NCBI GenBank assembly: GCA_963921275.4
Contig: OZ001293.3
Location: 768,001 to 832,000 of the forward strand
DNA: 64,000 bases
Origin: an uncultured Hormoscilla sp.
GTDB lineage: Bacteria > Cyanobacteriota > Cyanobacteriia > Cyanobacteriales > Desertifilaceae
Direction of reading: 5' to 3'
The translations under genes and the position numbers were made by a program. Of this stretch, positions 11,425 to 64,000 are shown piece by piece (the stretch's first letter is position 1; every line of letters starts with the position of its first letter). The notes below the pieces were generated by a model that was given only the letters and a program-made list of their open reading frames with translations, had not been told where the DNA came from and made no database searches.

Positions 11425-11613
11425 GTCATTGCGAGGGGGAGTTATGGTCGCAATTGTTATGATACCAGCCAGTAGGACCCCCGAAGCAGTCTCCTACTCT
11501 TCTACCGACGGCGTAGAGATTGCTAGCCCGACGGCGTAGGGCCGCTGCGCTAACGGGGTGAAGTTACTCTGAAAGCACAAGAATATCTCAACTATCCCCC
11601 CCCTCCCAATGAC
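11425..11613. repeat. REP/MITE-like palindromic element GTCATTGCGAG...CCCAATGAC with nested small insert
   Basis: Terminal inverted repeat; the inner CCCCGAAGCAGTCTC/GAGATTGCT..CGGGG arm is interrupted. Confidence 0.6.
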
Positions 11614-13224: not shown

Positions 13225-14241
13225 ACGTGAGTTCGACGGACTGGACAAAAAAAAAAGGCGGAGACTGGGTTTGAACCATTCCACCCCAGTCTGAACCCAC
13301 CATGAGTCAAATTGTATCGCGCCTGGATGTCACCCGCATCTTCTGTGAACTAGACGACTTCTGCCAAATGTTCGATTTTTCCGGAACGGTGCGCCACTGG
13401 GAAGAACAACCGCAACTGCCCTCCATGCCTGGGGAACGATGCTGTCGTTCGCGCATGAGCCTCTCAGAAATTATGACGATTGCCATCGCTTTTCATGGCT
13501 CGGGCTTCCGTACGTTCAAAGAGTTTTACACCCTGTGTGTTCTCCCCCATTGGCGCGGAGCCTTTCCCAACTTGGTCAGCTATAATCGCTTTGTGGAATT
13601 GATGCCGTGGTGTCTAATGCTATGAAGTTGTTTTCTTCATACTCGAAAAGGAGAAGTTACAGGCATTTCCTTTGTTGATTCTACACCCATAGAAGTTTGT
13701 CACCCTCGTCGTGCTCATAACCATAAGGTGTTCAAAGGGCTAGTCCACTGGGGGAAAAGCTCAACTGGCTGGCATTTCGGATTTAAATTGCATTTGATTA
13801 TCAACGAGCGCGGAGAGTTACTAGCCTTCAAGCTCACGCCAGCCAACACTGACGACCGTAAACCTGTACCAGAGATGGCTCAAGACTTGTTTGGAAAACT
13901 GTTTGGAGACCGGGGATATGTCTTGAGAGACCTATTCGAGAAATTATACGAACAAGGTCTCAAATTGCTAAATCGAAGCGAAATATGAAAAATCGCTTGA
14001 TGAAAACGAGCGATAAAATCCGGCTCCGGAAGCGGGCCGTCATTGAATCGGTCAACGACCAACTCAAGAACATCTGTCAAATCGAGCATTCTCGCCACCG
14101 AAGTGTCTTCAACTTCTTGGTCAACCTGCTGGCTGGCTTGGTGGCCTACACCGACGCCGATAAAAAACCTCGCCTCGTTCTGGAGGTCAAAGGCTTACCA
14201 GCACTACCTCCTGCCATTTTCTAGTTTCGTCGAACTCACGT
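13225..14241 (+). mobile_element. IS982-family element with broken transposase
   Basis: TIR ACGTGAGTTCGACG; GFKLHL, GDRGY and [10 protein letters not shown] motifs; in-frame stop at 13623 and a frameshift; near-TSD TAAATTT/TACATTT. Confidence 0.9.
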
Positions 14242-21490: not shown

Positions 21491-23440
21491 TTAAGATCCT
21501 GAAAGATTATACTGCTCCAGCAATTGCTGGGAAACCTCCAAAGCATCCTGGTAATCTCTAACTAAATTTCGAAGTTCTTGCTCGGTCCCCACGCTGAGAC
21601 AATCCTGCAAATCAGGGGGGAATTCTTCCATCTCAAAAGCTTCGTTCGTCCTTTGCGGTCCCAACTTGGCATCTACTTCAACTTGAGTCTTACCAATAAT
21701 TTCTTTTATTTCTGGTAATAAGAACCCCCGTTGCTTGCGAGCTAATACCCGAACCTGAGTCAAAGTATAACGCCAGTCAATTGCCAGCTTGCGACGCTCT
21801 TGCTCGTTAGCAAGTTCGGCATCCAGGATTTGTTCTTTAACAGCTTCCAAGAGTTCCCACCAGGGCTCATCGCGAGCAATTTCCGGTCCCCGTCGCTTTA
21901 ATGCTAATACTTGAATGATAGCATAAGAAAAATCCGCAAGCGAACTCCCACTAATATCAGTTAGCTGTCCGTTTGCGTCTATTTTCAGTGAAGTCGGCAA
22001 AATTTCATCCCTGTGGGAGCCAACTACAACCCGGTAGCCCGCTTTCAAATCTTGGAGGTTGAGATCCATCGTGGAGGAGAAAATCTCATCTTGAGAGCCT
22101 TCACGCAGTAGAAAACTCACCAATTGCCCGACAATTTTACTCACTCTCAGAGCCACAGCCCAATCAGGTCGAAGTAGCGATACTTGAGCGACTAAACCAG
22201 TTTGTTCGAGTTGAGTCATTGGATGGGGTCGAGCCGGGAATCGCTTCCCGACCCTCCCTTGAGGAACCGGACTTGCGATTTTCACCGCATCCGGCTACTG
22301 GGTACTAGGCCCTTTTCATAGGTAGACTTAATAGGAATTACTTCCGTTAGCCCTTGCCGCCTGTCTTTTCTTCCCTTTCCTGGTTTAGCGAGTGGTTGTT
22401 CTGATAACCGTTAGTATCACCATTTTCAAGTCAGTTTTACCAGTTATCCATACCTTATCCTCCACTTGCGTTTCGGATTAGTTCCGTGGCTTTTTAGGAT
22501 TACTCATTCCAGCAGCTTCCTAGTATCACCGACCCACGTCAGCGCTGGCTACCCAGCATCATCTACATTACTGTAGATGTTATCCCAGGAATTACCCCGG
22601 GCATTCGCTTCTTGGGTCATCCCTCCCCCCGTGGCTTGCGCTTAACATCTAACTTGTCCTGATGGACAGCACACGAGAGGTTACTTCGTTCCCTAACAAC
22701 ATTTCGCGATACCTTTAGGTCCACACTATACCCCGGGAGCTATTTGAGTACTATATTAGCCAGAGTCTAAAACTAATACTAGCTACCATTTCCTTTTTAG
22801 GCCAGCGCATATAGCCTTATTTCGCTGGTTCCTTATAACGAGGCTTGCACATGTTTGCCTGCTCTAACCTTGGATATCTTTCCTAGCGGCGTCACCGGCT
22901 TAGGCTGCCAGTTATCCTACATTTGAGTCCTCGCTTAGCACCACGATGATGTCGCTTCGTAGCACCGAGGACCGGTGTCACCCCCGTACCTGGGGGGAGG
23001 GGAATTTAACCCCATGCGGTCAGAGTTCCCGGCTAATGAAACCGGGCTAGCGTTCCGTGTTTGACCACGTTAGGCTAGAACGAATCGCACAAATTCTGTA
23101 AAGGTTTATCTTGCCATACTATATATTTCAAGTTGACACGCAACCAGTCAGTAGAGCGGGCAGGCAACTAGTCAGTTAAATTGATACTGAGACCCAAGCG
23201 ACAAGCCTTATTTTTTTGCACGGAGGAGATCTTGTGGAGGCTTTGGGTCGAGTAATTTGGCTGAAAAGAGCTTTCGACTGAAGAACTAAAAGTGATAAAT
23301 CCAGGTTCAGTCAGCAAACCAGCTCTGTAGAATGCTTGGGCATCGTGCAGCCTAACTAGAAAGTAGCTGTTGTTTAAATATAGGTTGCACGGGGGGTTAG
23401 GTTGCTCTGGATAGTAAATAGAACTGACACTACTTAGCAT
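21491..23440 (-). pseudogene. Hypothetical protein in the conflict operon, split by a sense-oriented group II intron, with a premature stop
   Basis: Exons join in frame (KPLQNL-MTQLEQ); in-frame TAG at 23168. Confidence 0.7.
22221..23090 (-). mobile_element. ORF-less group II intron (lineage B, copy 1)
   Basis: GTGCG 5' end at 23090; intact DV AGTAGCCGGATGCGGTGAAAATCGCAAGTCCGGTTC; near-identical to 56934-57804 and 57805-58675. Confidence 0.92.
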
Positions 23441-28172: not shown

Positions 28173-29911
28173 CGGGTAGTCTTTAAGTTGCAAAAGCGAA
28201 TTTACAGAGCGGCAATGGAAGGCGTAATAAGCGAACGGTTCGCAGACTCCAAAGATTACTGGTAAAATCCCGGGCAGCCAAAAGTCTAGCGGTACGACAG
28301 GTTACACAAGACAACCAGGGAAGGAAAACTGCCGGTGTGGATGGTGTTAAAGCACTGACCCCAAAGCAGCGCTTAGAACTGGTAGGACAGATTGAAATCT
28401 CAAACAAGGCCAAGCCTACACGTCGTGTATGGATACCCAAGCCAGGGAGAGAGGAAAAACGTCCTTTAGGAATACCAACGATGTACGACCGTGCGACACA
28501 AGGACTCCTCAAGACTGCGCTAGAACCCGAATGGGAAGCGTACATGGAAGGGAACTCCTACGGGTTCAGACCGGGAAGGGGATGCCACGATGCAATCGAG
28601 GCAATATACAGTAGCATCAAACAAAAACCCAAGTGGGTACTGGATGCAGACATTGCAAAATGCTTCGATAAGATAAACCACAAGGCGCTACTAGAAAAAC
28701 TGAATACAATATCACCAATCCGTAAGCAAATACGGGCATGGTTAAAAGCCGGGGTGATGGACAAAGGGGAATGGCATGCAACTGAAGCGGGAACGCCCCA
28801 AGGGGGTGTCATATCACCGCTACTAGCCAACATAGCCTTACATGGGTTAGAGGAGGCAGTAATGAAGCTCGCCAAGCCAACAAAGAACGAAAGAAAAAAG
28901 CTGACAGTAGTCAGATATGCAGATGACTTTGTAGTCATGCACGAGAACAGAGTGATAGTGGAAAAAGCGCAGATAGTGGTCGCAGAGTGGCTAAAAGGAA
29001 TCGGGTTAGAACTGAAAGCCGAAAAAACAAAAATAGCTCATACGCTAAAGGGGGAAAACCCGGGGTTTGACTTTCTGGGTTTCAACATCAGGCAATATGA
29101 GGTGAGTAAATACAGGACCGGCAAGTCAACACACGGAACACCCCTAGGATTCAAAACCCTAATAAAACCCAGTAATAAGTCCATAGGGAAGCATAAAGAA
29201 CGGTTATCAGAAATGGTGGCCAGCCATAAAGCAGCACCACAAACAGCCTTGATAAGTGGGGTAAACCCGATAATACGGGGATGGTCAAACTACTACAGGG
29301 CGGTGGTGAGTAAGGAAACTTACAGCTACATGGACCACTACCTATGGACCATTCTCTGGCAGTGGGCAAAAAGGAGACATCCCAATAAATCCAGTCATTG
29401 GATAGCTCGTAAGTACTGGTCCCTAAGTGAGGACGGTAAATGGCGATTCCGATGCAAGATAGGAAAAGATGAGATAACGCTGCGCAAACACTCCGAAACT
29501 GAGATAATCAGGCACGTAAAAGTGAAAGGTACAGCCAGCCCATATGACGGGAACCTTACATATTGGAGCGCAAGACTAGGTAAAAGCCCCGAGTTGAGTA
29601 AGAGGGTAGCAACGCTACTCAAGAGACAAAAGGGGAAATGCCAACACTGTGGACTAACGTTTATGAACTGTGACAAATGGGAAGTTGACCATATCAAGCC
29701 CCTCTCATTAGTCTCATTAGGGGGTAAGGACCGGTACGACAACCTACAGTTACTACACAAGCATTGCCACGATATAAAGACTGCCAACGATGGTAGCAAA
29801 CGTAGCCGTACCTATGACAAGGGTGGCGTTGCTGAGGAGCCGGATGATGCGAAAGTATCAAGTCCGGTTCTGAAGACTAGCAGGAGTGGTGACACTCTTG
29901 CTTAGTTTAAT
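28173..29911 (+). mobile_element. 5'-truncated RT-encoding group II intron (chloroplast-like class)
   Basis: DV GAGCCGGATGATGCGAAAGTATCAAGTCCGGTTC; end GCTTAGTTTAAT; 5' domains missing relative to the 55942 copy. Confidence 0.88.
28337..29905 (+). CDS. ltrA: Group II intron reverse transcriptase/maturase with HNH endonuclease (N-terminus frameshifted)
   Basis: RPLGIP, GTPQGG, YADD, IRGWSNYY and HNH (EVDHI..LHKHCH) motifs. Confidence 0.9.
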   Translation: MDGVKALTPKQRLELVGQIEISNKAKPTRRVWIPKPGREEKRPLGIPTMYDRATQGLLKTALEPEWEAYMEGNSYGFRPGRGCHDAIEAIYSSIKQKPKWVLDADIAKCFDKINHKALLEKLNTISPIRKQIRAWLKAGVMDKGEWHATEAGTPQGGVISPLLANIALHGLEEAVMKLAKPTKNERKKLTVVRYADDFVVMHENRVIVEKAQIVVAEWLKGIGLELKAEKTKIAHTLKGENPGFDFLGFNIRQYEVSKYRTGKSTHGTPLGFKTLIKPSNKSIGKHKERLSEMVASHKAAPQTALISGVNPIIRGWSNYYRAVVSKETYSYMDHYLWTILWQWAKRRHPNKSSHWIARKYWSLSEDGKWRFRCKIGKDEITLRKHSETEIIRHVKVKGTASPYDGNLTYWSARLGKSPELSKRVATLLKRQKGKCQHCGLTFMNCDKWEVDHIKPLSLVSLGGKDRYDNLQLLHKHCHDIKTANDGSKRSRTYDKGGVAEEPDDAKVSSPVLKTSRSGDTLA

Positions 29912-35677: not shown

Positions 35678-35838
35678 GCAGTGATATCCGATTTTTCCGG
35701 AACGGTGGCATCACTGTAGGGTTGAGGCGGGTAATTGTCTCGATATGAAGGAAGTTGTTGCGTGCATTTCGTATTCGCGCAACAACTTCCTATCGATCGG
35801 ATATAGTTGCTCCATTACAAATAATTTACAAAAGTATT

Positions 35839-39120: not shown

Positions 39121-39710
39121 ATGACGACAGCAACAAAATACGCTTGTGGACTGTAGAGGAATATCATCGGATGATCTCCAGTGGTATTCTTACCCGTGAC
39201 TCCTATGTAGAATTGTTAGAAGGTCGGATTGTAGAAATGAGCCGGAAAGGTCTACTCCATGCAGGTACTACCCAACGCGCTTCCGATTATATCAAAGCTC
39301 GATGACACGATCAAGCTCATGTCAGGATGCAATTGCCCGTTACTTTACCAACTTCCGATTTTTCCGGAACGGTACCGGAACCCGATGTGGCCGTAGTTAG
39401 GATCGATCGGGGTGCCTATGGAGATCATCATCCTACGCCAGACGAAATATTTCTGCTCGTAGAAGTCGCCGATACAACCCTAAGAATCGATCGCCTGGAG
39501 AAAGCGCCCCTCTACGCCAGGGCAAATATTCCAGAATACTGGATTTTAGATGTGAGCGATCGCCAAGCCTATATTTTCCGCGATCGAACTTCCGTTGGCT
39601 ATAGATCGTCTTTTGTTTTGCCAGATAATGCCGCTATTGCACTAAGAGCATTTCCAACAATAGAAATATCCCTATCCGATTTTTCCGGAACGGTGCTTTT
39701 TCTGCCGTAG
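39121..39710 (+). pseudogene. Uma2-family endonuclease
   Basis: WTVEEYHRM, EPDVAV, LLVEVAD and IPEYWI motifs; frameshift, stop at 39303, two 15-bp inserts. Confidence 0.85.
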
Positions 39711-41682: not shown

Positions 41683-42858
41683 ATGATATTCCGACGATAC
41701 TTCCTGTTTGCCCAGCTAAGAAAACACTGGTGGGTGACTCTGCTATTGTGGATAGCGATGTTCAACCCAGCGCTAGCAGCTGCTTTAGAACTGCGAGTCG
41801 CAATAGAAGAAGAAGTCAAGCAAGTGCAAGTGGGCAGTTCCTCGGCGGCCACAGTCAAGAATAGTGCTGGGGAAACCCTCGGAGAACTGAGGGCGATGTC
41901 GGGGTTTGTCGCTCAACATCAGGATAGCACTGTTGCCCTGTCCAAATGGCAAGCTGGTCAAATTTGGATTGAACCCGCAGATAATGGTTTAGTCTGGATC
42001 GGCGATCGCTGGTATCGAGGGCGCGTCCTCCTAGTCCCCAGCGAGTCAGGACTCACTGCTGTCAACTACGTAGACATCGAACATTATCTGTACAGCGTCT
42101 TAGGAGGGGAAATGCCTCCCAGCTGGCCCCTGGAAGCCCTGAAAGCCCAAGCAGTGGCCGCCCGTTCCTACGCCTTGTATCAGCGGGGGAAAACTGCCAA
42201 TAAAATCTACGATCTCGGCGATACCACCGCTTGGCAAGTTTACCAAGGGGTCGAAGATGAATATATCAGCACCCAACAAGCCGTAAATGCCACAGCTGAT
42301 CAAGTTCTCATCCACGATGGTAAGATTATCGAAGCCGTTTTCCACTCCTCCTCAGGAGGGCACACGGAAAACGTGGAAGATATCTGGACAGCGTCCCTAC
42401 CCTATTTGCGAGCAGTCCCCGACTTCGATCAGAATGCACCCGTGTTCGAGTGGAAAAAAACCTTTTCGGGCGATATTCTCAGCAGTTTAATTAGCAGTGT
42501 AGGTAATATTTTATCCCTAACTCCAGAGCGTACCACACCTCACGGACGGATTACCACCATGAAAGTTATCGGTGATAAAGGGGAGAAAGTCGTCACTGGC
42601 AAGGAACTGCGTAAACTGCTAAGCCTGAAAAGCACTTTATTTACTATCAGTCCCCTTGGGGAAAGTGCCGATTTTTCCGGAACGGTGGATGAAAATTCAC
42701 CTCCAAGCAGTTTCCAAGTAGTCGGTCGCGGTTTCGGACATGGACTGGGCCTGTCTCAGTATGGCGCTAATGCCTTAGCTCGACGGGGATACAACTACCA
42801 GCAGATTTTACTGCATTACTATACCAAAACATCTCTTGCTCGCATTGAAGTCGAGTAA
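41683..42858 (+). CDS. SpoIID/LytB domain protein
   Basis: ALKAQAVAARSY, QVY.G and GFGHGLGLSQYGA motifs; carries an in-frame 15-bp insert. Confidence 0.92.
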   Translation: MIFRRYFLFAQLRKHWWVTLLLWIAMFNPALAAALELRVAIEEEVKQVQVGSSSAATVKNSAGETLGELRAMSGFVAQHQDSTVALSKWQAGQIWIEPADNGLVWIGDRWYRGRVLLVPSESGLTAVNYVDIEHYLYSVLGGEMPPSWPLEALKAQAVAARSYALYQRGKTANKIYDLGDTTAWQVYQGVEDEYISTQQAVNATADQVLIHDGKIIEAVFHSSSGGHTENVEDIWTASLPYLRAVPDFDQNAPVFEWKKTFSGDILSSLISSVGNILSLTPERTTPHGRITTMKVIGDKGEKVVTGKELRKLLSLKSTLFTISPLGESADFSGTVDENSPPSSFQVVGRGFGHGLGLSQYGANALARRGYNYQQILLHYYTKTSLARIEVE

Positions 42859-44066: not shown

Positions 44067-44456
44067 TCAATCCAACCACTCACTGGGATCGGGTTGTTTG
44101 CGTTCCATTGCTTTGATATAATCTTTCAGCGTCCGCTTATAGTCGGCTGGCTTGGGCCGCTCAACTCGTACTCGGCCCGAATGGCCAGCCCGATTTTTCG
44201 CGCAGCGTTCGCGGGTCTTGGGAGGTTGGGGGGCCCGGGTTGGAGGAACGGTCAGGATCGACCGCAAGCGATCGCGAGCCTCATTGATTTGTCTCATTTT
44301 CTCATGAGCCTTCTGTTGCAGCCGAGGAAACTGGACAAAACGATCGGGGTGCCAGACGATCGCCAAATCCTTATAACCTTGGTGAATTTCCTCTAGGGAA
44401 GCCCCCGGTTCTAGTTCCAGGATTCTATAGTAGTGAGCTGCATCTGTCATATCCAA
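44067..44456 (-). CDS. DnaJ-domain protein
   Basis: YYRILEL..WHPD..INEA J-domain. Confidence 0.88.
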   Translation of the reverse strand: MDMTDAAHYYRILELEPGASLEEIHQGYKDLAIVWHPDRFVQFPRLQQKAHEKMRQINEARDRLRSILTVPPTRAPQPPKTRERCAKNRAGHSGRVRVERPKPADYKRTLKDYIKAMERKQPDPSEWLD

Positions 44457-46880: not shown

Positions 46881-47897
46881 ACGTGAGTTCGACGAAACTA
46901 GAAAATGGCAGGAGGTAGTGCTGGTAAGCCTTTGACCTCCAGAACGAGGCGAGGTTTTTTATCGGCGTCGGTGTAGGCCACCAAGCCGGCCAGCAGGTTG
47001 ACCAAGAAGTTGAAGACACTCCGGTGGCGAGAATGCTCGATTTGACAGATGTTCTTGAGTTGGTCGTTGACCGATTCAATGACGGCCCGCTTCCGGAGCT
47101 GGATTTTATCGCTCGTTTTCATCAAGCGATTTTTCATATTTCGCTTCGATTTAGCAATTTGAGACCTTGTTCGTATAATTTCTCGAATAGATATTGAGAG
47201 ACATATCCCCGGTCTCCAAACAGTTTTCCAAACAAGTCTTGAGCCATCTCTGGTACAGGTTTACGGTCGTCAGTGTTGGCTGGCGTGAGCTTGAAGGCTA
47301 GTAACTCTCCGCGCTCGTTGATAATCAAATGCAATTTAAATCCGAAATGCCAGCCAGTTGAGCTTTTCCCCCAGTGGACTAGCCCTTTGAACACCTTATG
47401 GTTATGAGCACGACGAGGGTGACAAACTTCTATGGGTGTAGAATCAACAAAGGAAATGCCTGTAACTTCTCCTTTTCGAGTATGAAGAAAACAACTTCAT
47501 AGCATTAGACACCACGGCATCAATTCCACAAAGCGATTATAGCTGACCAAGTTGGGAAAGGCTCCGCGCCAATGGGGGAGAACACACAGGGTGTAAAACT
47601 CTTTGAACGTACGGAAGCCCGAGCCATGAAAAGCGATGGCAATCGTCATAATTTCTGAGAGGCTCATGCGCGAACGACAGCATCGTTCCCCAGGCATGGA
47701 GGGCAGTTGCGGTTGTTCTTCCCAGTGGCGCACCGTTCCGGAAAAATCGAACATTTGGCAGAAGTCGTCTAGTTCACAGAAGATGCGGGTGACATCCAGG
47801 CGCGATACAATTTGACTCATGGTGGGTTCAGACTGGGGTGGAATGGTTCAAACCCAGTCTCCGCCTTTTTTTTTTGTCCAGTCCGTCGAACTCACGT
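46881..47897 (-). mobile_element. IS982-family element, copy 2
   Basis: Near-identical to 13225-14241; 6-bp TSD AAGTCC. Confidence 0.92.
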
Positions 47898-49207: not shown

Positions 49208-49520
49208 CATGTTTGTAGTAAGCGCTTTAGCGCTTTCCATGTTTGTAGTAAGCGCTTTAGCGCTTTCTGGGCAGTGGTGACAAGGTTTGCGCTCGCACGG
49301 GTGATGGTGGGCACCGCCCACCCTACGCAGCTTTGATTATAAATTGAAAGAGTTGGTTTTTCCATCCAGGGCCGTAGTGACAAGGTTTGCGCTCGCACGG
49401 GTGATGGTGGGCGGTGCCCACAAAGAGCGCTTTCCATGTTTGTAGTAAGCGCTAAAGCGCTTTCTGGGCAGTGGTGACAAGGTTTGCGCTCGCACGGGTG
49501 ATAGTGGGCGGCGCCCATCA
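49208..49520. repeat. Mosaic REP-like repeat cluster
   Basis: TGTAGTAAGCGCTTTAGCGCT x3 and GTGACAAGGTTTGCGCTCGCACGGGTGAT x3. Confidence 0.85.
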
Positions 49521-49734
49521 TACTAACTGAAACCCTTGCAGGGTAAGGATTTGGGCAAAACCAGCTTGCACAAGGACGCTCCGGCTCGCTATAGGTAGCA
49601 ACTTGGGTTAAAATAAGTTGGGTAAATTGCCTGCCGCTAGCTAAATTGCTTGACTCGGAAGGCTGTCTAAGGGTATCATTAGCTTGGCATAAGCTCTACA
49701 TTTTGTCCATTTTGCAAGAACAAACCATTGATAT

Positions 49735-56933: not shown

Positions 56934-57804
56934 GGATGGGGTCGAGCCGGGAATCGCTTCCCGACCCTCCCTTGAGGAACCGGACTTGCGATTTTCACCG
57001 CATCCGGCTACTGGGTACTAGGCCCTTTTCATAGGTAGACTTAATAGGAATTACTTCCGTTAGCCCTTGCCGCCTGTCTTTTCTTCCCTTTCCTGGTTTA
57101 GCGAGTGGTTGTTCTGATAACCGTTAGTATCACCATTTTCAAGTCAGTTTTACCAGTTATCCATACCTTATCCTCCACTTGCGTTTCGGATTAGTTCCGT
57201 GGCTTTTTAGGATTACTCATTCCAGCAGCTTCCTAGTATCACCGACCCACGTCAGCGCTGGCTACCCAGCATCATCTACATTACTGTAGATGTTATCCCA
57301 GGAATTACCCCGGGCATTCGCTTCTTGGGCCATCCCTCCCCCCGTGGCTTGCGCTTAACATCTAACTTGTCCTGATGGACAGCACACGAGAGGTTACTTC
57401 GTTCCCTAACAACATTTCGCGATACCTTTAGGTCCACACTATACCCCGGGAGCTATTTGAGTACTATATTAGCCAGAGTCTAAAACTAATACTAGCTACC
57501 ATTTCCTTTTTAGGCCAGCGCATATAGCCTTATTTCGCTGGTTCCTTATAACGAGGCTTGCACATGTTTGCCTGCTCTAACCTTGGATATCTTTCCTAGC
57601 GGCGTCACCGGCTTAGGCTGCCAGTTATCCTACATTTGAGTCCTCGCTTAGCACCACGATGATGTCGCTTCGTAGCACCGAGGACCGGTGTCACCCCCGT
57701 ACCTGGGGGGAGGGGAATTTAACCCCCATGCGGTCAGAGTTCCTGGCTAATGAAACCGGGCTAGCGTTCCGTGTTTGACCACGTTAGGCTAGAACGAATC
57801 GCAC
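56934..57804 (-). mobile_element. ORF-less group II intron (lineage B, copy 2)
   Basis: 871 bp, near-identical to 22221-23090. Confidence 0.92.
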
Positions 57805-58675
57805 GGATGGGGTCGAGCCGGGAATCGCTTCCCGACCCTCCCTTGAGGAACCGGACTTGCGATTTTCACCGCATCCGGCTACTGGGTACTAGGCCCTTTT
57901 CATAGGTAGACTTAATAGGAATTACTTCCGTTAGCCCTTGCCGCCTGTCTTTTCTTCCCTTTCCTGGTTTAGCGAGTGGTTGTTCTGATAACCGTTAGTA
58001 TCACCATTTTCAAGTCAGTTTTACCAGTTATCCATACCTTATCCTCCACTTGCGTTTCGGATTAGTTCCGTGGCTTTTTAGGATTACTCATTCCAGCAGC
58101 TTCCTAGTATCACCGACCCACGTCAGCGCTGGCTACCCAGCATCATCTACATTACTGTAGATGTTATCCCAGGAATTACCCCGGGCATTCGCTTCTTGGG
58201 CCATCCCTCCCCCCGTGGCTTGCGCTTAACATCTAACTTGTCCTGATGGACAGCACACGAGAGGTTACTTCGTTCCCTAACAACATTTCGCGATACCTTT
58301 AGGTCCACACTATACCCCGGGAGCTATTTGAGTACTATATTAGCCAGAGTCTAAAACTAATACTAGCTACCATTTCCTTTTTAGGCCAGCGCATATAGCC
58401 TTATTTCGCTGGTTCCTTATAACGAGGCTTGCACATGTTTGCCTGCTCTAACCTTGGATATCTTTCCTAGCGGCGTCACCGGCTTAGGCTGCCAGTTATC
58501 CTACATTTGAGTCCTCGCTTAGCACCACGATGATGTCGCTTCGTAGCACCGAGGACCGGTGTCACCCCCGTACCTGGGGGGAGGGGAATTTAACCCCCAT
58601 GCGGTCAGAGTTCCCGGCTAATGAAACCGGGCTAGCGTTCCGTGTTTGACCACGTTAGGCTAGAACGAATCGCAC
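57805..58675 (-). mobile_element. ORF-less group II intron (lineage B, copy 3), tandem with copy 2
   Basis: 871 bp, abuts copy 2 with no spacer. Confidence 0.92.
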
Positions 58676-59876
58676 GGACTCCTCAAGATTACGCTCGAAC
58701 CTGAATGGGAGGCGTATATGAAAGGGAACTCCTACGGGTTCAGACCGGGTAGGGGATGTCACGATGCAATCCAGGCAATATTTGATAGCATCAGATATAA
58801 ACCCAAGTGGGTAATGGATGCTGATATTGCAAAATGCTTCGATAAGATTGACCACAAAGCGCTAATGAAAAAATTAAATACAACGTCACCAATCCGTAAG
58901 CAAATACGGGCATGGTTAAAAGCCGGGGTGATGGACAAAGGAGAATGGCATGCAACCGAAGCGGGAACTCCCCAAGGGGGAGTCATATCACCACTACTAG
59001 CCAACATAGCCTTACATGGGTTAGAGGAGGCAGTAAAGGAACTCGCCAGGACACAAAGGGAAAAGCAAAAGCTGACGGTAATCAGGTATGTTGATGACTT
59101 TGTGATAATACATGAAGATAGGGAGATAATAGACAGAGCGCAGACAGTGGTGGCAAAGTGGCTAAAGGGAATGGGGCTAGAGTTGAAAGCCGAAAAGACA
59201 AAAATAACTCATACGCTAAAGGGAGAAAAACCGGGATTTGATTTCCTGGGGTTCAACATAAGGCAATATGAGACGGGTAAATACAGAGCCAACAAATCAC
59301 CCCAAGGAATACCCCTAGGGTTCAAAACCCTAATCAAACCCAGTAATAAGTCCGTAGGTAAGCATAAAGAACGGTTATCAGAAATGGTCGCCAGCCATAA
59401 AGCAACACCACAGACAGCCTTGATAAGTAGGCTAAACCCGATAATACGGGGATGGTCAAACTATTACAGAACTGTGGTGAGTAAGGAAACTTACAGCGAC
59501 ATGGATAACTACCTATGGAACATCCTATGGCAATGGGCCAAAAGGAGACATCCCAAAAAGTCAAGTCACTGGATAGCCCGTAAGTACTGGTCTAAAGACC
59601 AGGGTGGTAAATGGCGATTCCGATGCAAGACAGGAGAGGGAGAGATAACGCTGTGCAAACATACTGAGATAATCAGACAAGTAAAAGTAAAAGGCACAGC
59701 AAGCCCATACGATGGGAACCTTACATATTGGAGTACGAGATTAGGCAAAAGCCCCGAACTGAGCAAGAGAGTGGCAACAGTATTGAAGAGGCAAAAGGGA
59801 AAATGTCAATACTGCGGATTAACGTTTATGGACAGTGACAAATGAGAAGTTGACCAGATCAAGCTTCTTTCATTAG

Positions 59877-60088: not shown

Positions 60089-60288
60089 TTTCATTAGGGG
60101 GTAAGGACCGGTATGACAACCTACAGTTGCTGCACAAGCATTGCCACGATATAAAGACTGCCAGCGATGGCAGCAAAAACAGCCGTACCCATGACAAAGG
60201 TGGCGTTACTGAGGAGCCGGATGACGCGAAAGTGTCAAGTCCGGTTCTGAAGACGAGTCGAGGTGGTGACACCCTGGCTTAGTTTAAT

Positions 60289-61550: not shown

Positions 61551-62119
61551 ATACTTCACTTGGTCAGGATTTGAGCTTTATCGATAATTTGAAATTTCAG
61601 ATTTAGCAGAGATTTAAGCTCTTCTTTATGGACGGTATGAGCGCTGTCTATTATAGTAGTGATTGCTGATTTGAATGCATCAAAATTCTCATAATATTGA
61701 GAATTTAAACATCTTTTTTTGACCCATTTCCACAATCTTTCTATTAAATTTAAGTTAGGAGAATATGAGGGCAAATATAATAAATCTATATTGAGTTTTT
61801 TAGCTCTTTCCCAAACTAAATTGCATTTTTGATATCGGGCATTGTCCATAACTAATGAAATTGGTATTGACGGCAATTTTCTGCGAATTTTTGATAATAA
61901 TTCACAAACCGTTTCCGCCTTAATATAGGTATCATTAGTTACAGTTATTACTTCGGAAGTAATAGCATTTAAAGCTCCTAAAACATTGAACCGTTTTCGA
62001 CCAAATGGTGTTTTGATAAAAATTATTTTAAAACACCACAAAAATCCCAGAAAAGCTCCCATTACAAAATGCGCTCGCTCGTCAAGAAAGTACAGGCGCA
62101 CGCCCGGGACGTAAGGCAA
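61551..62119 (-). mobile_element. IS630-family transposase fragment
   Basis: MDNARYQ and LPSYSPNLNLIERLW motifs; AT-rich. Confidence 0.88.
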
Positions 62120-62214
62120 TATTTCGCTAAGAAATCATCGGCGATCGTGTTGTGGTCTGACCATAAGCGCTGGTAATCTATTTATCAGTCCTGCCCACTA
62201 AAGCCCGATTGCCT

Positions 62215-63581
62215 GGGTACATCTCAGTTAGGCGATGAGTAATTATACTTAGTGCTTGTCTCCCTCAAAACGGTACATAATTTAGGCACTGTTGACCACC
62301 CTTGACCCATGAACTCCCAAAAGCAGGCTGAACTCCAGCAACATCTTGACGCGATTGCCGCGATTCTCTACCAGGAAGCCGACCCCACTGAACTCACCAC
62401 CCTTGAAGGCATTGAGAAAAACGTTCGTGCGCTTGCCCAAGAACACGTCTGGCCTCAACTAGGAATTTTTTTATCAACACGGCGACTTCCCGCCGCACCG
62501 GAAAACAGCGTACCCTGACCAGTATCCTGGGCAAACTAACCCTCACCACTGCTCAAGCCCAACAACTGCAAGTTAAACCGGGAACTCGTTGGAGTCCGTA
62601 TGTGGAAAAATGTTGTTGGGTCGTCAGTGCCAATGCCTCTTACCAGAGAGCCGATTTTTCGGGCCGTCCGCGGACCGTACAAGATCTCGCGATGCTGACT
62701 GGGGTGAGCATCTCCACAGTACGCTCCAACGCTTTGTTCAACGAGAGGACTGGTCTGAGGTAGAGATAGCTGAACCGATTCAGGAGCTCAGCTTGGATGG
62801 CGGCATGATTCGCCTTCGTACCGATTTTTCGGGCCGTCCGCGGACCGTGGAGGGTCAACCTGGTGAGTGGCGAGAATACAAAGCCTTAAATGTCCATGAG
62901 CAAGGCAGTGTGGCTTTCTTCAAGGATAATCAAGGGCTGCTTGAGTGGGTGAATGCCCAGCCCCTCGGGGCGCAGTTCACCGGTCTCGGAGATGGTCATG
63001 ATGGGGTGTGGAACATTTTCAGTGGTATCGGGACACCAGAACAACGTATCGAAGTGCTCGATTGGTATCACCTAATGGAAAATGCCAATAAGGTGCAAGG
63101 GACACCGGCTCAATCCGATTTTTCGGGTCGTCCGCGGACCGTGCAGATCCGATTTTTCGGGCCGTCCGCGGACCGTGCACTCCTGTGGCGAGGGGAGACC
63201 CAGAGGGCGATTAGTTATCTGCGCCAACAGCAATGTCGGGGAGCCACAGGGTTGATCAACTACTTGAAGCACCATCAGACGCGCATCATTGACTACCAGG
63301 CTAGCCCTCCTGGCGTCGGGCCGCTGCGCGAACGGGCAGGCAGCTCGGCACTCGATTGGCTCTGGTCGGGTTGAGTCCCTGGTGAAACAAATTGGGTTAA
63401 GGGTGAAATTACCGGGGGCACAATGGCGAGCCGAGAATGTGCCGATTTTTCGGGCCGTCCGCGGACCGTAGGTGTTGAAGCATCGCTGTGCCTACCTGAA
63501 TGGCGCATTAGTTGCCTAATCAGACTCAGTAAATCCACTTTTGCTGAGTAAATATACTCATCGCCTAACTGAGATGCACCC
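62215..63581 (+). mobile_element. ISKra4-like element with degraded transposase
   Basis: TIR GGGT(A/G)CATCTCAGTTAGGCGATGAG; 8-bp TSD GATTGCCT; LGDGHDGVW, LDWYHL and IGSG.VES motifs. Confidence 0.88.
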
Positions 63582-64000
63582 GATTGCCTAATATACGATC
63601 CAGACAATCTCGACTCGATCAATTGGCGTGGCGACGGGCCAATGCCATTAATCTACTACAACCCTGAGGAAATGGTGTCGCCGATCAAAGACGTACATCA
63701 CGAGTTAGGAAAGAGGCATTTCTTAAACACTGGCGAGCCGAGAACGGGCAAGTCTCACAAATCATCATCAGCGCATCCTGATGACTTTGATTTAGAGAGG
63801 GAGAACGTGCTTCTTGAGCGCAAGAATGGGGAGGTCGAGCAGTGCGGGCACGAGCCAAAGATATGGTATTTGACAAACTCACCTAAGAACCCTACCAATG
63901 CACCATTAGAAGAGAATTTTGAAGCTTTACCATCTTGGGCCGAACGCCTATATGCTGGTGACAAGACAACGCCAAGCGGTCGGAGCTATCATCACTCCCA

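Follow-up and report, generated by a model that had tools for sequence, protein, structure and literature searches.

The right-hand end of a 64,000-nt stretch of DNA from an uncultured Hormoscilla sp. (contig OZ001293.3, positions 768,001 to 832,000; hereafter the window) carries an insertion sequence (IS) of the ISKra4 family, the transposase gene of which is interrupted by five copies of a 24-mer, TTTTTCGGGCCGTCCGCGGACCGT, and by a separate small insert (Table 1). Here we report that the 24-mer belongs to a family of non-autonomous, site-specific micro-elements native to Hormoscilla, of which at least three variants exist, the 24-mer itself and two that are 15 nt long. The target duplication of the IS is intact and this copy therefore arrived by transposition, presumably having been mobilised in trans.

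The label ISKra4 is taken from the NCBI names of homologues (P0006, P0064 and P0101) rather than from ISfinder family motifs. As a reference we used P0006, a 353-residue Geitlerinema protein that NCBI names an ISKra4 family transposase, and aligned it with the IS by tblastn; four segments of 78-90% identity cover all 353 residues, which supports membership of the family. In the native IS every 24-mer copy appears as an exact 8-residue gap. Once the five copies are removed, the alignment resolves into four gap-free segments (frames +1, +3, +2 and +3) that run from residue 1 to residue 353, and the peptides YQRAEQDL, RLRTEEGQ, AQSEQIRALLW and ENVPKVLK are restored, as an earlier reading made from the letters of this DNA (the sequence-only reading) had anticipated. 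Homologues sharing the element-encoded peptides, which that reading had named as the observation that would speak against it, are not the rule: 154 homologues passed the E-value cut-off, and of the 120 listed, 119 lack the peptides, among them a Hormoscilla GUM202 transposase that is 84% identical, and homologue P0025 is continuous across the site of copy 5.

The gene is also damaged in ways that the sequence-only reading did not mention. Two single-base frame changes are present, one near 62467-62470 in a run of T and the other near 62715; the 31-nt insert causes a third; and at the right junction of copy 5 the last T of the element forms a TAG stop (63469-63471) with the flanking AG. This IS is a dead copy. 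The 31-nt insert belongs to another repeat family (...AGCCCTCCTGGCGTCGGGCCGCTGCGCGAAC...) without the TTTTTC start of the 24-mer, relatives of which occur in the window at about 11526-11553 and in Hormoscilla SP12CHS1 at L037:1063-1099.

All five 24-mers lie in one orientation, follow CCGA, precede a purine and contain the 10-nt palindrome GTCCGCGGAC, and four of them are exact; positions, strand, the single substitution and the target CCGA^R (the caret marks the point of insertion) all agree with the sequence-only reading. The 24-mer had no match in 100 shuffles, with none expected by chance, and no further match with up to three mismatches was found in the remaining 62.6 kb of the window. 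On the top strand of the element-free IS five of the six CCGAR sites are filled, and site scoring bears out the earlier observation that CCGAG at 63431 is empty; on the bottom strand none of three CCGAR sites is filled, nor is any of the 12 CTGAR sites of the IS, and about 190 CCGAR sites in the rest of the window hold no 24-mer. If insertions were placed at random, the probability of all five falling among the nine CCGAR sites of the IS (of ~199 in the window) would be about 5e-8.

Evidence on the history of these insertions comes from a transposase fragment, P0001 (its 90% cluster has nine member sequences), which lies on one contig with the DNA polymerase I protein P0246 and is taken to be encoded elsewhere in the same genome as the window. 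Inserts 1-4 and the 31-nt lesion are both present in it, its N-terminal part is in frame and contains three substitutions, and it ends before the site of copy 5. Inserts 1-4 at least therefore predate the last copying of the IS; a single acquisition, in an ancestral copy of the IS, was followed by copying within the genome and by further decay.

To place the 24-mer in a wider context, we scanned 185,579 species genomes for exact matches. These amount to 69 matches at 61 loci (L numbers below), where about 0.01 would be expected by chance, and all are confined to four Hormoscilla assemblies (~45 loci in SP12CHS1, 14 in GUM202 and GM7CHS1pb combined, and two in a sediment bin). The mapping outside the IS for which the sequence-only reading had called is thereby supplied, the rest of the window contributing nothing. 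Overlaps and orthologous duplicates having been dropped, 62 unique sites are left, at which the flanks follow a consensus: position -5 is T in 32, -4 is C in 60, -3 is C in 51 and T in 10, -2 is G in 61, and -1 is A in all 62, with a purine at +1 in 60. In a broader set of 75 unique copies (window and loci together, up to two mismatches), the left flank is CCGA (60), CTGA (10) or other sequence (five), and the following base is G (40), A (28) or T (seven). The right boundary is exact in 71 of the 75, with identical ends, and 70 copies are confined to CYGA^R.

The 24-mers are thus ordinary residents of the Hormoscilla genome and not the sign of a foreign host. The sequence-only reading had suggested that the 24-mer might reflect a previous host of the IS, and we considered a foreign one; the idea was dropped, as the element is native to chromosomal genes of the genus and the window itself is Hormoscilla (its SpoIID protein and that of Hormoscilla sp. 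SP5CHS1 share 96-97% identity), so that no previous host is needed. The DNA polymerase I (PolA) of this genome lacks both 24-mer inserts found in the PolA of SP12CHS1, and the IS may have been transferred between Hormoscilla lineages.

Clustering is a general property of the element, at least two copies (up to four mismatches) lying within about 2 kb of each other at 18 of the 61 loci, and a close pair resembling copies 3 and 4 of the IS recurs at L003. Even beside this, five copies in 815 bp is an extreme density. The earlier proposal of strong local or processive insertion therefore survives in part: the clustering is upheld, but P0001 indicates that inserts 1-4 of this particular IS copy were inherited by copying.

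Most of the unique sites are intragenic. Open frames of at least 150 codons contain 41 of the 62, 13 in sense and 28 in antisense orientation and in all three phases, and 27 of 39 such frames have Pfam domains, none of them a transposase; examples are DNA polymerase I, Ycf4, trigger factor, ribosomal protein S1, DnaJ, LdpA, TamB and an ABC transporter. On inspection, all six frames of the 24-mer and of the 15-mer described below are free of stop codons. At the right junction a stop can arise in the phase that makes the final T the first base of a codon (T+AA, T+AG or T+GA); this phase is rare, being that of one of the 13 sense insertions, and copy 5 of the IS is in it.

In one subfamily of the 24-mer the last four bases are CCGA in place of CCGT, and TCG follows in every copy, so that these elements sit within the palindrome CCGA^TCGG, the CGATCG of which is the core of HIP1. 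In some of these copies the GGGCCG and GGACCG blocks are swapped. Two further 24-mers (L048:1756 and L018:1446) are flanked by CCAA, and one of them has CAGG for CGGG, amounting to two CpG-to-CpA changes.

Comparison of filled and empty sites suggests that these are real mobile insertions, a conclusion that we hold with high confidence. The trigger-factor genes of SP12CHS1 (L048) and GM7CHS1pb (L026), 91.5% identical over an overlap that extends beyond the gene, differ by exactly 24 nt, and the empty site reads cccct^tcgg, with neither duplication nor loss at the DNA level. An exact 24-nt presence/absence difference, again in DNA, separates L053 from L035 for the CCGA^TCGG subfamily. In PolA, the 24-mer occupies site A in one of 10 Hormoscilla-type sequences and site B in four of the 10, with both sites empty in four outgroups; the PolA of this genome (P0246) has a private 15-mer insert near its N-terminus, and that of Hormoscilla sp. 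GM102CHS1 (P0243) has 23 extra residues nested inside the 8-residue peptide that the 24-mer encodes at site B. The 24-mer is itself nested in one arm of a palindromic repeat of ~100 nt (arms TCGTGTCC..GCGCCCACCC), the other arm of which reads CCAGA and is empty. The number of exact-copy loci, too, varies widely among the four assemblies. More broadly, Hormoscilla genomes hold many kinds of small insertion elements: comparisons of L007 with L057, L035 with L053 and L028 with L059 revealed other inserts, namely a 24-nt GC-rich one, a 46-nt perfect hairpin, and sequences of 115 and 125 nt resembling MITEs (miniature transposable elements with inverted repeats).

The second variant is a 15-mer, TTTTTCCGGAACGGT, with six copies in the window and flanks of CCGA or TCGA; the copy at 47732 lies within an inverted duplicate and is therefore not an independent insertion. 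The duplicated segments (13302-13625 and 47497-47820) each contain a 107-residue open reading frame (ORF) with the 15-mer after TCGA. Counted over the window and the loci, 11 of 12 unique 15-mers follow CCGA and one TCGA. A third variant, TTTTTCGCGCAGCGT, also of 15 nt, is known from four unique copies flanked by GCGA (two), TCGA (one) and CCGA (one), and has a 36-nt relative with the same ends. All three variants share the TTTTTC start, the GT end and a length that is a multiple of three, have unrelated cores, and co-occur in Hormoscilla DNA. The sequence-only reading had joined the 24-mer and the 15-mer in one system, to which the shared CCGA target, termini, length rule and co-occurrence all point; that account was incomplete, the third variant having been missed.

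The 15-mer, too, is present in some genomes and absent from others. Its insertion in the SpoIID/LytB gene of the window gives ESAD FSGTV DEN, shared with P0121, in place of the ESAE-DEN of the Hormoscilla sequences P0122, P0123 and P0125. The closest hits of the window protein are all from Hormoscilla, and among the five closest gap-free Hormoscilla-type sequences the site is filled in two and empty in three; the insert is common to SP5CHS1 and absent from three Hormoscilla sequences about 91% identical. Because they neither duplicate nor delete anything, have lengths in multiples of three and contain no stops, the elements persist in housekeeping proteins, to which they add 5 or 8 residues, and also in non-coding DNA.

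The six independent 15-nt insertions of the window (13376, 35692, 39359, 39680, 42672 and 44194) all lie on the + strand, irrespective of gene direction. This hint of a replication-strand bias was followed up and dropped, since neighbouring 24-mers in the Hormoscilla loci have the same orientation in 13 cases and opposite orientations in 12.

Table 1. Features of the window (64,000 nt) and of the Hormoscilla loci. Positions are those of the window unless a locus number is given; a caret marks the point of insertion.
Feature	Position	Strand	Remarks
ISKra4-family IS	62215..63581	+	1367 bp; 1216 bp minus the five 24-mers and the 31-nt insert
IS terminal inverted repeats	62215-62252 and 63544-63581		38-nt arms, 87% complementary
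IS target duplication	62207-62214 and 63582-63589		8 bp, GATTGCCT, intact
Transposase pseudogene	62309..63519	+	tblastn segments versus P0006
24-mer copy 1	62655..62678	+	exact; GCC GA^A CAA, after codon position 2; RAD FSGRPRTV QDL versus RAE-EDL in P0006
24-mer copy 2	62825..62848	+	exact; ACC GA^G GAG; RLRTD FSGRPRTV EGQ versus RLRTE-EGQ in homologues
24-mer copy 3	63119..63142	+	C>T at element position 10; TCC GA^G CAG
24-mer copy 4	63153..63176	+	exact; 10 nt past copy 3; ATC CGA^GCA, between codons
Separate small insert	63303-63336	+	net 31 nt, not a multiple of three; one Trp codon replaced
Empty CCGAG site	63431..63435	+	sole unfilled top-strand CCGAR in the IS
24-mer copy 5	63446..63469	+	exact; CCG A^AG, after codon position 1
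15-mer after TCGA	13376..13390	+	107-residue ORF of unknown function
15-mer	35692..35706	+	intergenic, just downstream of an inositol-1-phosphate synthase ORF
15-mer	39359..39373	+	Uma2-family ORF
15-mer	39680..39694	+	second copy in the same Uma2-family ORF
15-mer	42672..42686	+	in frame in the SpoIID/LytB gene, GCC GA^G GAT
15-mer	47732..47746	-	inside inverted duplicate of 13302-13625; identical flanks
Third variant after CCGA	44194..44208	+	antisense in a DnaJ-domain ORF
Group II intron domain V/VI matches	22223-22299, 29835-29911, 56936-57012, 57807-57883, 60212-60288		
Reverse transcriptase/maturase ORFs	28337-29905 and 58718-59845		
~100-nt palindromic repeat with 24-mer	L001, L003, L005, L011, L019, L023, L037, L044, L056		near position 1000 in each
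CCGA-ending 24-mer subfamily	L003:1035, L022:796, L033:209, L043:1641, L048:1628, L053:704, L055:168		

The mode of insertion is sharply defined. Orientation is fixed; the cut falls exactly between the A and the next purine of CCGA^R or, less often, CTGA^R; filled and empty sites differ by exactly the element, with no target duplication, no deletion and seamless empty sites; and the sequence of the element is independent of its flank. These features are the hallmarks of elements moved as single strands by enzymes of the HUH/Y1 kind, such as IS200/IS605 and the repetitive extragenic palindromes (REPs) with their REP-associated tyrosine transposase (RAYT), rather than those of MITEs moved by DDE-type transposases. 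The explanation that we favour, with moderate confidence, is a native Hormoscilla micro-element that hit an ancestral IS at five of its six top-strand sites and is proposed to move as a single strand guided by pairing.

The single-strand, guide-pairing mechanism by itself is a tentative proposal, possible rather than probable. In it, a trans-acting nuclease/transferase of the HUH/Y1 kind would act on single-stranded DNA and cut after an SSGW motif, i.e. after the left flank CCGA^ and after the right end of the element, CCGT^, CGGT^ or GCGT^. These sites would be presented by pairing with bases 5-9 of the element (TCGG, CCGG, TCGC), a built-in guide, and the excised strand would be pasted after another matching tetranucleotide. 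Several observations are consistent with such a guide. In both the 24-mer (TCGG and CCGA) and the third variant (TCGC and GCGA), the preferred target has its reverse complement at element bases 5-8, and CTGA, the second commonest target of the 24-mer, keeps the pairing by a G.T wobble. The right ends CCGT, CGGT and GCGT are complementary to element bases 6-9, and thus one nuclease cutting after SSGW could define both ends. A GCGA flank is found in two of the four third-variant copies versus one of the 75 24-mers (Fisher p about 0.006, from few copies). A flank-derived ('P-nucleotide') origin of TCGG was considered and rejected, because copies with a CTGA or TCGA flank carry the same element. 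A compensatory change of target and guide within the 24-mer family was likewise set aside, none being present in the two CCAA-flanked copies.

A number of points weigh against this reading. No Y1/HUH transposase was found in the 184 open frames of the 61 loci or in the 44 ORFs of the window (about 186 kb together). Single elements are predicted to fold weakly as single strands (z-scores -1.5, -0.1 and +0.75), for which reason we abandoned the hairpin as a defining feature; the 15-mer, moreover, has no convincing hairpin and pairs with CCGA over 3 bp only, in a different register. The covariation of target and guide rests on four third-variant copies, neighbouring 24-mers lack the lagging-strand bias of IS200/IS605, and the CCGA^TCGG subfamily, with its CCGA end, is not predicted by the simple model. 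In PolA (P0241-P0250), the sequences filled at site B do not fall within one clade of the single-gene tree (weakly resolved, supports 0.72-0.99), a pattern that requires repeated gain, precise loss or recombination. Finally, a single window fits a single burst, local hopping, and accumulation or gene conversion among IS copies alike.

If the mechanism holds, a change of guide from TCGG to TCGC would retarget the element from CCGA to GCGA, a HIP1 half-site; the stop-free design in multiples of three would let elements colonise essential genes; and the near-saturation of one strand of the IS would report time spent single-stranded. Taken to its limit, the proposal would make these the smallest mobile DNA elements yet defined (15 nt), self-guided single-strand micro-transposons whose bases 5-8 pair with both the target and their own right end and which are served by one host nuclease/ligase, a speculation that we consider rather unlikely to be right as a whole.

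Clustering, as at 18 of the 61 loci, could also be expected from template switching or short-patch gene conversion, in which a nascent end in ...CCGA would jump during replication to a filled site, copy the element and return. Microhomology of 4-5 nt is all that the flanks have in common, a multi-copy IS would supply templates, and inserts such as those of P0001 could accumulate through gene conversion between IS copies. The right side of the element fits this explanation poorly: 71 of 75 copies have an exact boundary there, yet the right flanks share only a purine and thus offer no microhomology for the return switch. In addition, orientation relative to CCGA is fixed, and three unrelated cores have the same termini, which indicates that the ends are recognised. 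On balance we regard template switching as unlikely.

An RNA intermediate inserted by a reverse transcriptase is more doubtful still, and we consider it improbable. Read on the bottom strand, AC...GAAAAA^TCGG, each element finishes with GAAAAA, which recalls a short A tail; the window also contains five matches to group II intron domain V/VI and two reverse transcriptase/maturase ORFs (Table 1). The A5 run, however, is constant in length and part of the element; the targets have no run of T or A for priming, and intron boundary motifs are absent; the sites to which group II introns home are long and specific, unlike a tetranucleotide; and the 24-mers show no association with reverse transcriptase genes in the 61 loci. 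A search of Rfam found no family at the IS or the elements, its matches elsewhere in the window being group II introns only. These introns share long repeats with one another, and two copies are in tandem, 871 bp apart.

The constant ends and palindromic middle of the 24-mer resemble two joined termini, and the 23 residues nested within the 24-mer peptide of PolA P0243 might be taken in the same sense, as if the elements were scars left on excision by a larger transposon or intron, specific for CCGA and with TTTTTCGGGCCG... and ...CCGCGGACCGT as its ends. In the window and 61 loci, however, no 24-mer has its 5' and 3' halves split by other DNA, all seven 'half-only' matches are full-length copies with point substitutions, and the same ends occur in 71 of 75 copies; this origin is highly improbable. 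An artefact of assembly or sequencing, to which the two single-base frameshifts of the IS in homopolymer runs (possible long-read errors) might point, has a negligible probability, given that the same complex, non-homopolymeric 24-mer occurs in four independently assembled Hormoscilla genomes, at shared orthologous positions, and in proteins deposited by several sources.

Among described repeats, the small dispersed repeats (SDR1-8) that Elhai and colleagues reportedly described in 2008 in Genome Research, from Nostoc punctiforme and other heterocyst-forming cyanobacteria and said to measure 21-27 nt, invite the closest comparison. We know of no transposase for the SDRs, and how very small cyanobacterial repeats move is, to our knowledge, not understood. 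The Hormoscilla elements are likewise very short, highly repeated and dispersed, have pseudo-palindromic cores, and occur in genes, between genes and nested in other repeats. The 24-mer is within the reported SDR size range, whereas the two 15-nt variants are outside it. Signs of mobility put forward for SDRs, nesting in repeats and confinement to a short motif, are seen here in the palindrome arm and in the restriction of 70 of 75 copies to CYGA^R. One source places the insertion site of SDR5 at the HIP1 octamer, GCGATCGC, and reports that searches outside the Nostocaceae turned up no SDR-like repeat (PMC5861425). Where SDR5 is confined to HIP1, the 24-mer has a subfamily in CCGA^TCGG, and GCGA, the preferred flank of the third variant, is the left half of HIP1, an octamer that occurs 37 times in the window. 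The hosts differ, Hormoscilla being a non-heterocystous filamentous genus, and the family in Hormoscilla has a tetranucleotide target with a fixed cut and TTTTTC...GT termini; the likeness to SDRs considered here is one of description.

IS200/IS605 elements insert in one orientation 3' of a tetra- or pentanucleotide; they lack terminal inverted repeats, do not duplicate the target and leave seamless empty sites, and their target, which is also the left cleavage site, is recognised by pairing with a short internal guide. They and their derivatives without ORFs (PATEs) are 100 nt to 2 kb in length, with a hairpin near each end; IS200/IS605 elements also have a lagging-strand bias. The elements studied here share the fixed tetranucleotide target, the single orientation and the lack of duplication, but at 15-24 nt have at most one weak hairpin, two end hairpins being impossible in 15 nt; neighbouring copies are without strand bias, and no TnpA was found near copies in the 61 loci or the window. 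The sole IS200/IS605-related hit in the loci is a TnpB-like fragment (Cas12f1-like TNB domain) at L032:1266-1688 (- strand) in GUM202, about 250 bp from a 24-mer. Nor do the elements qualify as MITEs, as their ends, TTTTTCGG and ...GACCGT, are not inverted repeats and there is no target-site duplication. The Rickettsia palindromic elements (RPE), which Ogata and colleagues are said to have described in 2000 as about 100-150 bp long, are similar in being selfish repeats in frame within genes that stay functional, and differ in belonging to another phylum and in having no tetranucleotide target of the CCGA kind.

REPs, and the REPINs built from them, are similar to the Hormoscilla elements as palindrome-containing, non-autonomous repeats of 20-40 nt that are thought to be moved by an IS200/IS605-type tyrosine transposase. 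They lie mainly outside genes, often as inverted pairs, and combine a strong stem with a head of GTAG or CGTC (Di Nocera et al., 2013, PMC3733652; Bertels and Rainey, 2011, PMC3116915); some REPs are in frame inside ORFs, where they encode extra residues, and CGTC-tagged REPs have no dedicated transposase alongside (PMC3733652). By contrast, none of the three variants has GTAG on either strand, CGTC occurs in the 24-mer only, where it overlaps the palindrome, and 41 of the 62 24-mers are intragenic; the elements fold weakly and have a defined insertion target and exact boundaries. The closest described kind is the SDRs and the next the REPs. In its workings the family resembles both; head motif, location and stem set it apart from REPs, and size and hairpins from IS200/IS605 derivatives. 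We found no published account of the Hormoscilla elements or their sequences, nor of small dispersed repeats like these in cyanobacteria other than Nostoc, in the full-text literature, a coverage that excludes subscription journals. What is new here is the lineage, the smaller minimum size (15 nt), the sharply defined target and ends, and the candidate guide.

The finding is real and more general than the sequence-only reading supposed. An exact target, exact boundaries without duplication, three variants with the same ends, a possible guide and the availability of filled and empty alleles make the mechanism directly testable. Proteins that tolerate additions of 5 and 8 residues include DNA polymerase I, trigger factor, Ycf4 and S1 of the ribosome, and within this uncultured sponge symbiont strains differ in protein length because of the elements, which can also mislead gene calling and alignment.

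Two other features of the window are worth recording. Directly upstream of the ISKra4 copy lies an ORF for a DDE_3 (IS630-like) transposase (61556-62119, - strand), marking this as an IS-rich spot. Further to the left, at 49229-49523, a 98-nt repeat with a GC-rich hairpin (GGTGGGCACCGCCCACC) is present in three tandem copies.

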